DNA from: Escherichia phage AV110
Sequence record: OR352940.1
Strand: one strand, 5' to 3'
DNA length: 64,000 bases
The notes beneath the pieces are model-generated. The model did no database searches and had not been told where the DNA came from. It saw only the letters and a list, made by a program, of their open reading frames with translations. The first letter of the stretch is position 1. Each line of letters opens with the position of its first letter. Of this stretch, positions 52,265-52,720 are shown piece by piece. The translations under genes were made by a program, and so were the position numbers.

Positions 52265-52720
52265 TTATTTTAGATCTTCGGCCCAATCTAGTTTTAAGGG
52301 TTCTTTGTATTCACGGTCGAGAATAACCGGAATAGCTACATCACCACTGAATGATAGTTGGCCAACGTTATATGATAACGTTATATGTGGAGTGTAGTCG
52401 TCGAAATCATGAGTAGCACCTAAAGCTCGTGCATACTGATGACGACATCTAAGATATTCGGAATCAAGAACTAAAACCAGTACAGCGCCGTCGTCAGTTT
52501 TCCATACCTCAAAGTGTCCTGATTCGGCAATAGAATAACTACCACTGGATGTAGTATATGGTATGTTTACACGTGAATAACAAATTGTTGAATGAAGCTT
52601 TTCACGTGGTACTGGATTAGGAATTCTTAATTTGCGCTGGAGGTCTTCCAGCGCATCAAGTGTTAATTCCGAAAATTTAGCTGCGACGTAGAGGCCTTGT
52701 GAAAAGTCCTCAAATTTCAT
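52265..52720 (-). CDS. 57B: 2H-phosphoesterase-fold protein, gene 57B homologue (Acb1-like anti-CBASS nuclease)
   Basis: 151 aa with two H-x-T/S motifs ([16 protein letters not shown]); T4 gene 57B is, as I recall, the Acb1 cyclic-oligonucleotide phosphodiesterase. Confidence 0.7.

Follow-up and report, generated by a model that had tools for sequence, protein, structure and literature searches.

An orthologue of the T4 anti-CBASS phosphoesterase Acb1 (gp57B), very probably functional, in Escherichia phage AV110

The product of T4 gene 57B, Acb1, has been described as a protein of the 2H phosphoesterase fold with an HxT/HxT catalytic tetrad (H44, T46, H113 and T115), base-stacking aromatic residues (Y12, W74, F107 and W147), a glutamate contacting the adenine N6 (E141) and a lid at the C-terminus (residues 145-152) closing over bound ligand (PMC9117128). 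The enzyme is metal-independent and converts adenosine-containing cyclic di- and trinucleotides into linear 3'-phosphate products; cGAMP, cUA and cAAA are cleaved, whereas cGG and cA4 are not, and the H44A/H113A exchange abolishes its activity (PMC9117128). Acb1 protects T4 from CBASS in vivo, and phage lacking acb1 has been characterised on CBASS hosts (PMC9117128). The gene is conditionally essential in HIDEN-SEQ experiments, with transposon insertions depleted on a CBASS host and 57B non-essential on K-12 (bioRxiv 10.1101/2025.11.20.689424), and its expression is mostly middle/late (bioRxiv 10.64898/2026.03.30.715471). The Acb1 of Erwinia phage FBB1 has been solved both in the apo form (PDB 7T26) and with 3'3'-cGAMP (PDB 7T27). 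Both H-x-T/S-x motifs also occur in proteins of the LigT or 2'-5' RNA ligase type (Pfam PF13563), which share the 2H fold by way of the superfamily; Acb1 differs from them in its closed pocket and lid, both adapted specifically to cyclic di- and trinucleotides (PMC9117128).

The sequence analysed here, referred to as the window, is a stretch of 64,000 nucleotides from Escherichia phage AV110 (OR352940.1), and the features of the acb1 locus are collected in Table 1. A preliminary description of this sequence had noted a 151-aa protein with tandem H-x-T/S motifs at the 57B position and had regarded it as an Acb1-like homologue of 57B. The protein proved to be an 85% identical, gap-free orthologue of the T4 gene 57B product at the same genomic position (NP_049750.1; 128/151 residues, 92% positives, gaps 0, E 2e-102), and both motifs, H43-S-T45-I and H112-I-T114-L, could be read directly from the sequence. 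The accompanying statement that T4 57B is Acb1 agrees with Hobbs et al. 2022 (Nature 605:522; PMC9117128). The Pfam family PF23474, "Anti-CBASS protein Acb1", matched the 151-aa protein with 196.8 bits (gathering cut-off 27, E 1.8e-58), residues 8-149 covering profile positions 1-144 of 144, that is, the full length of the profile; a search of the NCBIfam models with the same protein gave no match. Among solved structures, the top match was PDB 7T26/7T27, labelled "Acb1" (E 7.9e-59 for 7T26), and the identity to the FBB1 protein of PDB 7T26 was 64% over 140 residues. Because the protein is so nearly identical to the T4 enzyme, the ORF almost certainly encodes a functional Acb1, an anti-CBASS 2H phosphoesterase orthologous to T4 gp57B. 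A single-sequence AlphaFold2 prediction gave a poor model (mean pLDDT 39.5, pTM 0.32). We nevertheless regard the fold as settled, since 64% identity to a crystallised chain allows a 2H phosphoesterase fold that is compact and bears a C-terminal lid to be inferred.

Table 1. Positions of acb1, its functional segments and neighbouring features in the AV110 window
Feature	Position	Strand	Remarks
Gene 2 (DNA end protector)	54430..55251	minus	about 2 kb upstream of acb1
Gene 3	53743..54333	minus	
Gene 1 (dNMP kinase)	52955..53689	minus	Pfam DNMK 1.9e-96; first of the tight 1-57A-57B block
T4 late-promoter-like site	53305..53312	minus	TATAAATA; within gene 1, some 585 bases upstream of where acb1 starts
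Gene 57A (tail-fibre chaperone)	52720..52950	minus	directly upstream of acb1; Pfam GP57 5.9e-23; 58% identity to T4 gp57A
TAATG junction	52718..52722	minus	57A stop and acb1 start overlapping by one base; read from the sequence
acb1 (gene 57B orthologue), CDS	52265..52720	minus	ATG start, 151 codons and TAA stop
First catalytic motif, H43-S44-T45-I46	52583..52594	minus	T4 H44/T46; reverse complement CAT TCA ACA ATT
Second catalytic motif, H112-I113-T114-L115	52376..52387	minus	T4 H113/T115; reverse complement CAT ATA ACG TTA
C-terminal lid segment, residues 144-151	52268..52291	minus	published as 145-152; includes W146; lid description in PMC9117128
Sigma-70-like site, TTTACA-17-TACTAT	52222..52250	minus	extended -10 TG; in the 77-base acb1-ipI gap
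ipI	51900..52187	minus	directly downstream of acb1; Pfam IPI_T4 'nuclease inhibitor' 1.4e-50; 88% identical to T4 IpI
Sigma-70-like site, TTTACA-17-TATAGT	51867..51895	minus	extended -10 TG; just downstream of ipI
Four conserved small ORFs	50463..51849	minus	171, 96, 134 and 68 aa; between the tRNAs and ipI
tRNA genes Arg(tct), Met(cat)	50204..50383	minus	

The window protein contains exactly two H-x-[TS] motifs, with 0.69 expected from amino-acid composition alone; such motifs by themselves are weak evidence, and it is the similarity of the whole protein that decides its identity. T4 Acb1 starts with MM and the window protein with a single M, which makes it one residue shorter at the N-terminus and shifts its numbering to that of T4 minus 1. 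All nine of the residues named in PMC9117128 are kept (Y11, H43, T45, W73, F106, H112, T114, E140 and W146), and the lid segment, LDWAEDLK, carries a single conservative change relative to T4, from D to E at residue 148. The T4 and window proteins thus share the tetrad, the base-stacking residues, the adenine-reading glutamate and the C-terminal lid, as well as the slot between 57A and ipI. The protein was further aligned with T4 and FBB1 Acb1 and seven distant homologues from Acinetobacter, Aeromonas, Cronobacter, Vibrio (two), Klebsiella and Shigella phages, which range from 49% down to 28% identity. Seventeen columns of this 10-sequence alignment were invariant, including Y11, H43, T45, H112, T114 and E140; the preliminary description had named the loss of the catalytic histidines from a proper alignment as grounds for abandoning the assignment, and no such loss was observed, H43 and H112 being invariant down to 28% identity. 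In FBB1 Acb1 both HxT motifs and the C-terminal tryptophan align with the window protein, but a one-residue insertion follows the strand equivalent to that of W73, and F replaces W73 and Y replaces F106. Both HxT motifs also align in PDB 9Q2G ('Anti-CBASS protein Acb1', 165 aa), whose similarity to the window protein is very weak (E 0.008) and which lies on another branch of the family.

The label 'RNA ligase' is attached to this family in the PHROG 755 description and in the RefSeq entry for T4 57B, and it invites the reading that the protein is a LigT-like 2'-5' RNA ligase or a cyclic phosphodiesterase acting at the ends of RNA, e.g., in tRNA repair. The location of acb1 near a tRNA cluster would suit such a role, and residues 69-131 do match Pfam 2_5_RNA_ligase2 (PF13563) weakly (E 0.012). 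That match, however, scored 16.1 bits, with the cut-off at 27 and the Acb1 family at 196.8 bits. Direct experiments have moreover established the T4 orthologue as a cyclic-oligonucleotide phosphodiesterase, with a closed pocket that admits only di- and trinucleotide rings (PMC9117128), and the pocket-forming residues of T4 Acb1 are all kept in the window protein. Activity on RNA ends was thus considered extremely improbable and was rejected on the grounds of the sub-threshold LigT-type score and the known substrates of the T4 enzyme. The 'RNA ligase' label reflects only superfamily resemblance and is outdated for the Acb1 family.

The codon-aligned acb1 genes of the window and T4 are 74.8% identical at the nucleotide level, with pN 0.119, pS 0.696, dN 0.13, dS of about 2, close to saturation, and dN/dS 0.066. 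As judged from this comparison, the Acb1 protein is under strong purifying selection relative to T4. A tblastn search with the window protein returned matches in 1,469 phage records, 118 of them with at least 99% identity, and among the matches listed the proteins of Shigella phage SSE1 and Escherichia phage ECO26.1 3-1 were 100% identical. In the BASEL phage Bas47 (AlbertHofmann), which is a Mosigvirus, the same slot codes for a protein with 99.3% identity, and the 4-kb surroundings of acb1 show 97-98% DNA identity to Mosigvirus phages, e.g., NicPhage, moskry and mar005P1. The gene, a Mosigvirus orthologue of T4 Acb1, is already known, and the identical proteins already deposited bear out the earlier remark that the finding is not novel. 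Its value lies in the correct label for a gene that is still a 'hypothetical protein' or an 'RNA ligase' in many phage records, in PHROG 755 and in the T4 RefSeq entry NC_000866, and it brings no new biology. Disrupted copies of acb1 do occur in some relatives, e.g., through a nonsense mutation in Bas43 (PMC13577387), so that the window gene might be pictured as a decayed, catalytically dead remnant kept by its position between 57A and ipI. The ORF is nevertheless of full length and free of frameshifts and stops, and a protein at least 99% identical is encoded in the 118 phage records mentioned above. Because the ORF and all catalytic and ligand-contact residues are intact and dN/dS is low, we regard a dead remnant as excluded.

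Two homologues deviate at the C-terminus. The match in AV111 (OR352941.1) is 99.3% identical yet ends at residue 147, and the C-terminal lid may be altered in that phage. The Acb1 homologue of Klebsiella phage KP27 (Slopekvirus; positions 109-732 of the stretch compared) is 207 aa long, has an extension of about 55 residues past the lid position and is without the lid tryptophan.

By analogy with the T4 enzyme, the small, presumably monomeric Acb1 of AV110 would bind cyclic di- and trinucleotide signals with at least one adenosine, such as 3'3'-cGAMP, cUA, cAAA/cA3 and cAAG. The bases would be stacked on Y11, W73, F106 and W146 and the adenine N6 read by E140, while the C-terminal lid would shut over the ligand and the adenosine would be strained in the lidded pocket. 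The adenosine 2'-OH would then attack the 3'-5' phosphodiester under acid-base catalysis by H43, T45, H112 and T114 with no metal, proceeding through a 2',3'-cyclic phosphate intermediate to a linear 3'-phosphate product that should be unable to activate CBASS effectors. This Mosigvirus is thus predicted to neutralise CBASS signalling that employs adenosine-containing cyclic di- or trinucleotides, and the phage would need acb1 on hosts with CBASS but could do without it on others.

The main selective role of the same enzyme could also lie elsewhere, in the removal of the cA3 that type III CRISPR or further cA3-signalling systems produce, or the gene could be a net liability on hosts with Panoptes. 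Acb1 does degrade cA3, whereas type III CRISPR is rare in E. coli, which counts against a role outside CBASS. Type II Panoptes senses the loss of cA3; the Tevenvirinae Bas35-37, with intact acb1, are restricted by it, and escapers mutate acb1 (PMC13577387). Acb1 plays an ambiguous part in type I Panoptes (PMC12657218). Bas47, with its 99.3% identical protein, shows that a close counterpart of the window gene is carried by a BASEL phage. The loss of 57B insertions from the T4 transposon library on a CBASS host (bioRxiv 10.1101/2025.11.20.689424) and the work on acb1-less T4 on CBASS hosts (PMC9117128) nonetheless point to CBASS, and a different main role appears unlikely. A cA3-related role outside CBASS is compatible with the data and would widen the range of targets, leaving the identity of the enzyme as Acb1 unchanged. 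By analogy with Bas35-37 (PMC13577387), the intact acb1 should expose AV110 to type II Panoptes guard systems. The window protein differs from T4 Acb1 by 23 substitutions, mostly conservative and clustered at residues 56-80. Those in the strands around W73 might be imagined to shift the substrate range, e.g., to spare decoy nucleotides watched by Panoptes while CBASS signals are destroyed; the known ligand-contact residues are unchanged from T4 despite the 23 substitutions, and we consider such a shift very unlikely.

On the minus strand, acb1 belongs to the order 2, 3, 1, 57A, acb1, ipI, the trna.4/.3/.2 homologues with a 171-aa ORF, tRNA-Met and tRNA-Arg, which corresponds to the arrangement in T4 and AR1. 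The 57B position assigned to the ORF at the outset was borne out by the order 1-57A-57B-ipI, which is the same in T4, AR1, moskry and AlbertHofmann; this orthologous position within the Tevenvirinae is supportive of the Acb1 family, not defining for it. Gene 1 ends 4 bases before the start of 57A, and 57A and acb1 overlap by one base in TAATG, in comparison to 4 bases in T4. The spacing of the genes leads us to infer that genes 1, 57A and 57B are transcribed together, and the TAATG junction suggests that acb1 is probably coupled translationally to 57A. IpI is injected and inhibits the type IV restriction enzyme GmrSD. If this role holds for the AV110 protein, ipI and acb1 are two known counter-defence genes side by side. 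The adjoining ipI and the nearby gene 2 place acb1 among other known counter-defence genes, which provides a context for other candidates in the window. One of the Bas35 acb1 PCR primers (PMC13577387) had a site in gene 1 of the window (53038..53061) with 2 mismatches, and the second had no match in the window within 3 mismatches; the primer mismatch indicates that the window is not Bas35-like at that flank.

A scan for promoters and terminators yielded 16 promoter-like sites, in comparison to 13.4 ± 3.7 in shuffled sequence, i.e., no enrichment, and it identified no promoter directly upstream of acb1. Since the scan was no richer than shuffled sequence, we make no firm claim regarding an acb1 promoter. 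The two sigma-70-like sites on either side of ipI (Table 1) may serve as early promoters of ipI and, farther downstream, of the small ORFs and the tRNA region, within a scan that overall was not enriched over shuffled sequence. The T4 late-promoter-like TATAAATA was the sole site of its kind on the minus strand in 51800..54500.

The two tRNA genes of the locus are the only ones in the whole 64-kb window, and an Rfam scan of 47000..56000 found nothing beyond them; at the equivalent place T4 has eight tRNAs, rnaC, rnaD and the segB homing endonuclease. T4 trna.2/.3/.4 and an AR1 ORF are the homologues of the four small ORFs that separate the tRNAs from ipI. The small ORFs had no Pfam or NCBIfam match and fell only into PHROGs of unknown function, and for the 68-aa ORF the moskry annotation gives a putative membrane protein. 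NicPhage (positions 899-1162 of the stretch compared) has an additional ORF of 87 aa lying between ipI and its trna.4 homologue, and this ORF is absent from the window at about 51850..51899. In several other close relatives the match was split in two and spanned about 320-360 additional bases, suggesting a similar insertion there, its position having been checked in NicPhage only. The N-terminus of the extra NicPhage ORF (MKTYKEFIAES; PHROG 13302, function unknown) resembles that of IpI (MKTYKEFISPD), which suggests that this variable slot may hold another packaged internal protein.
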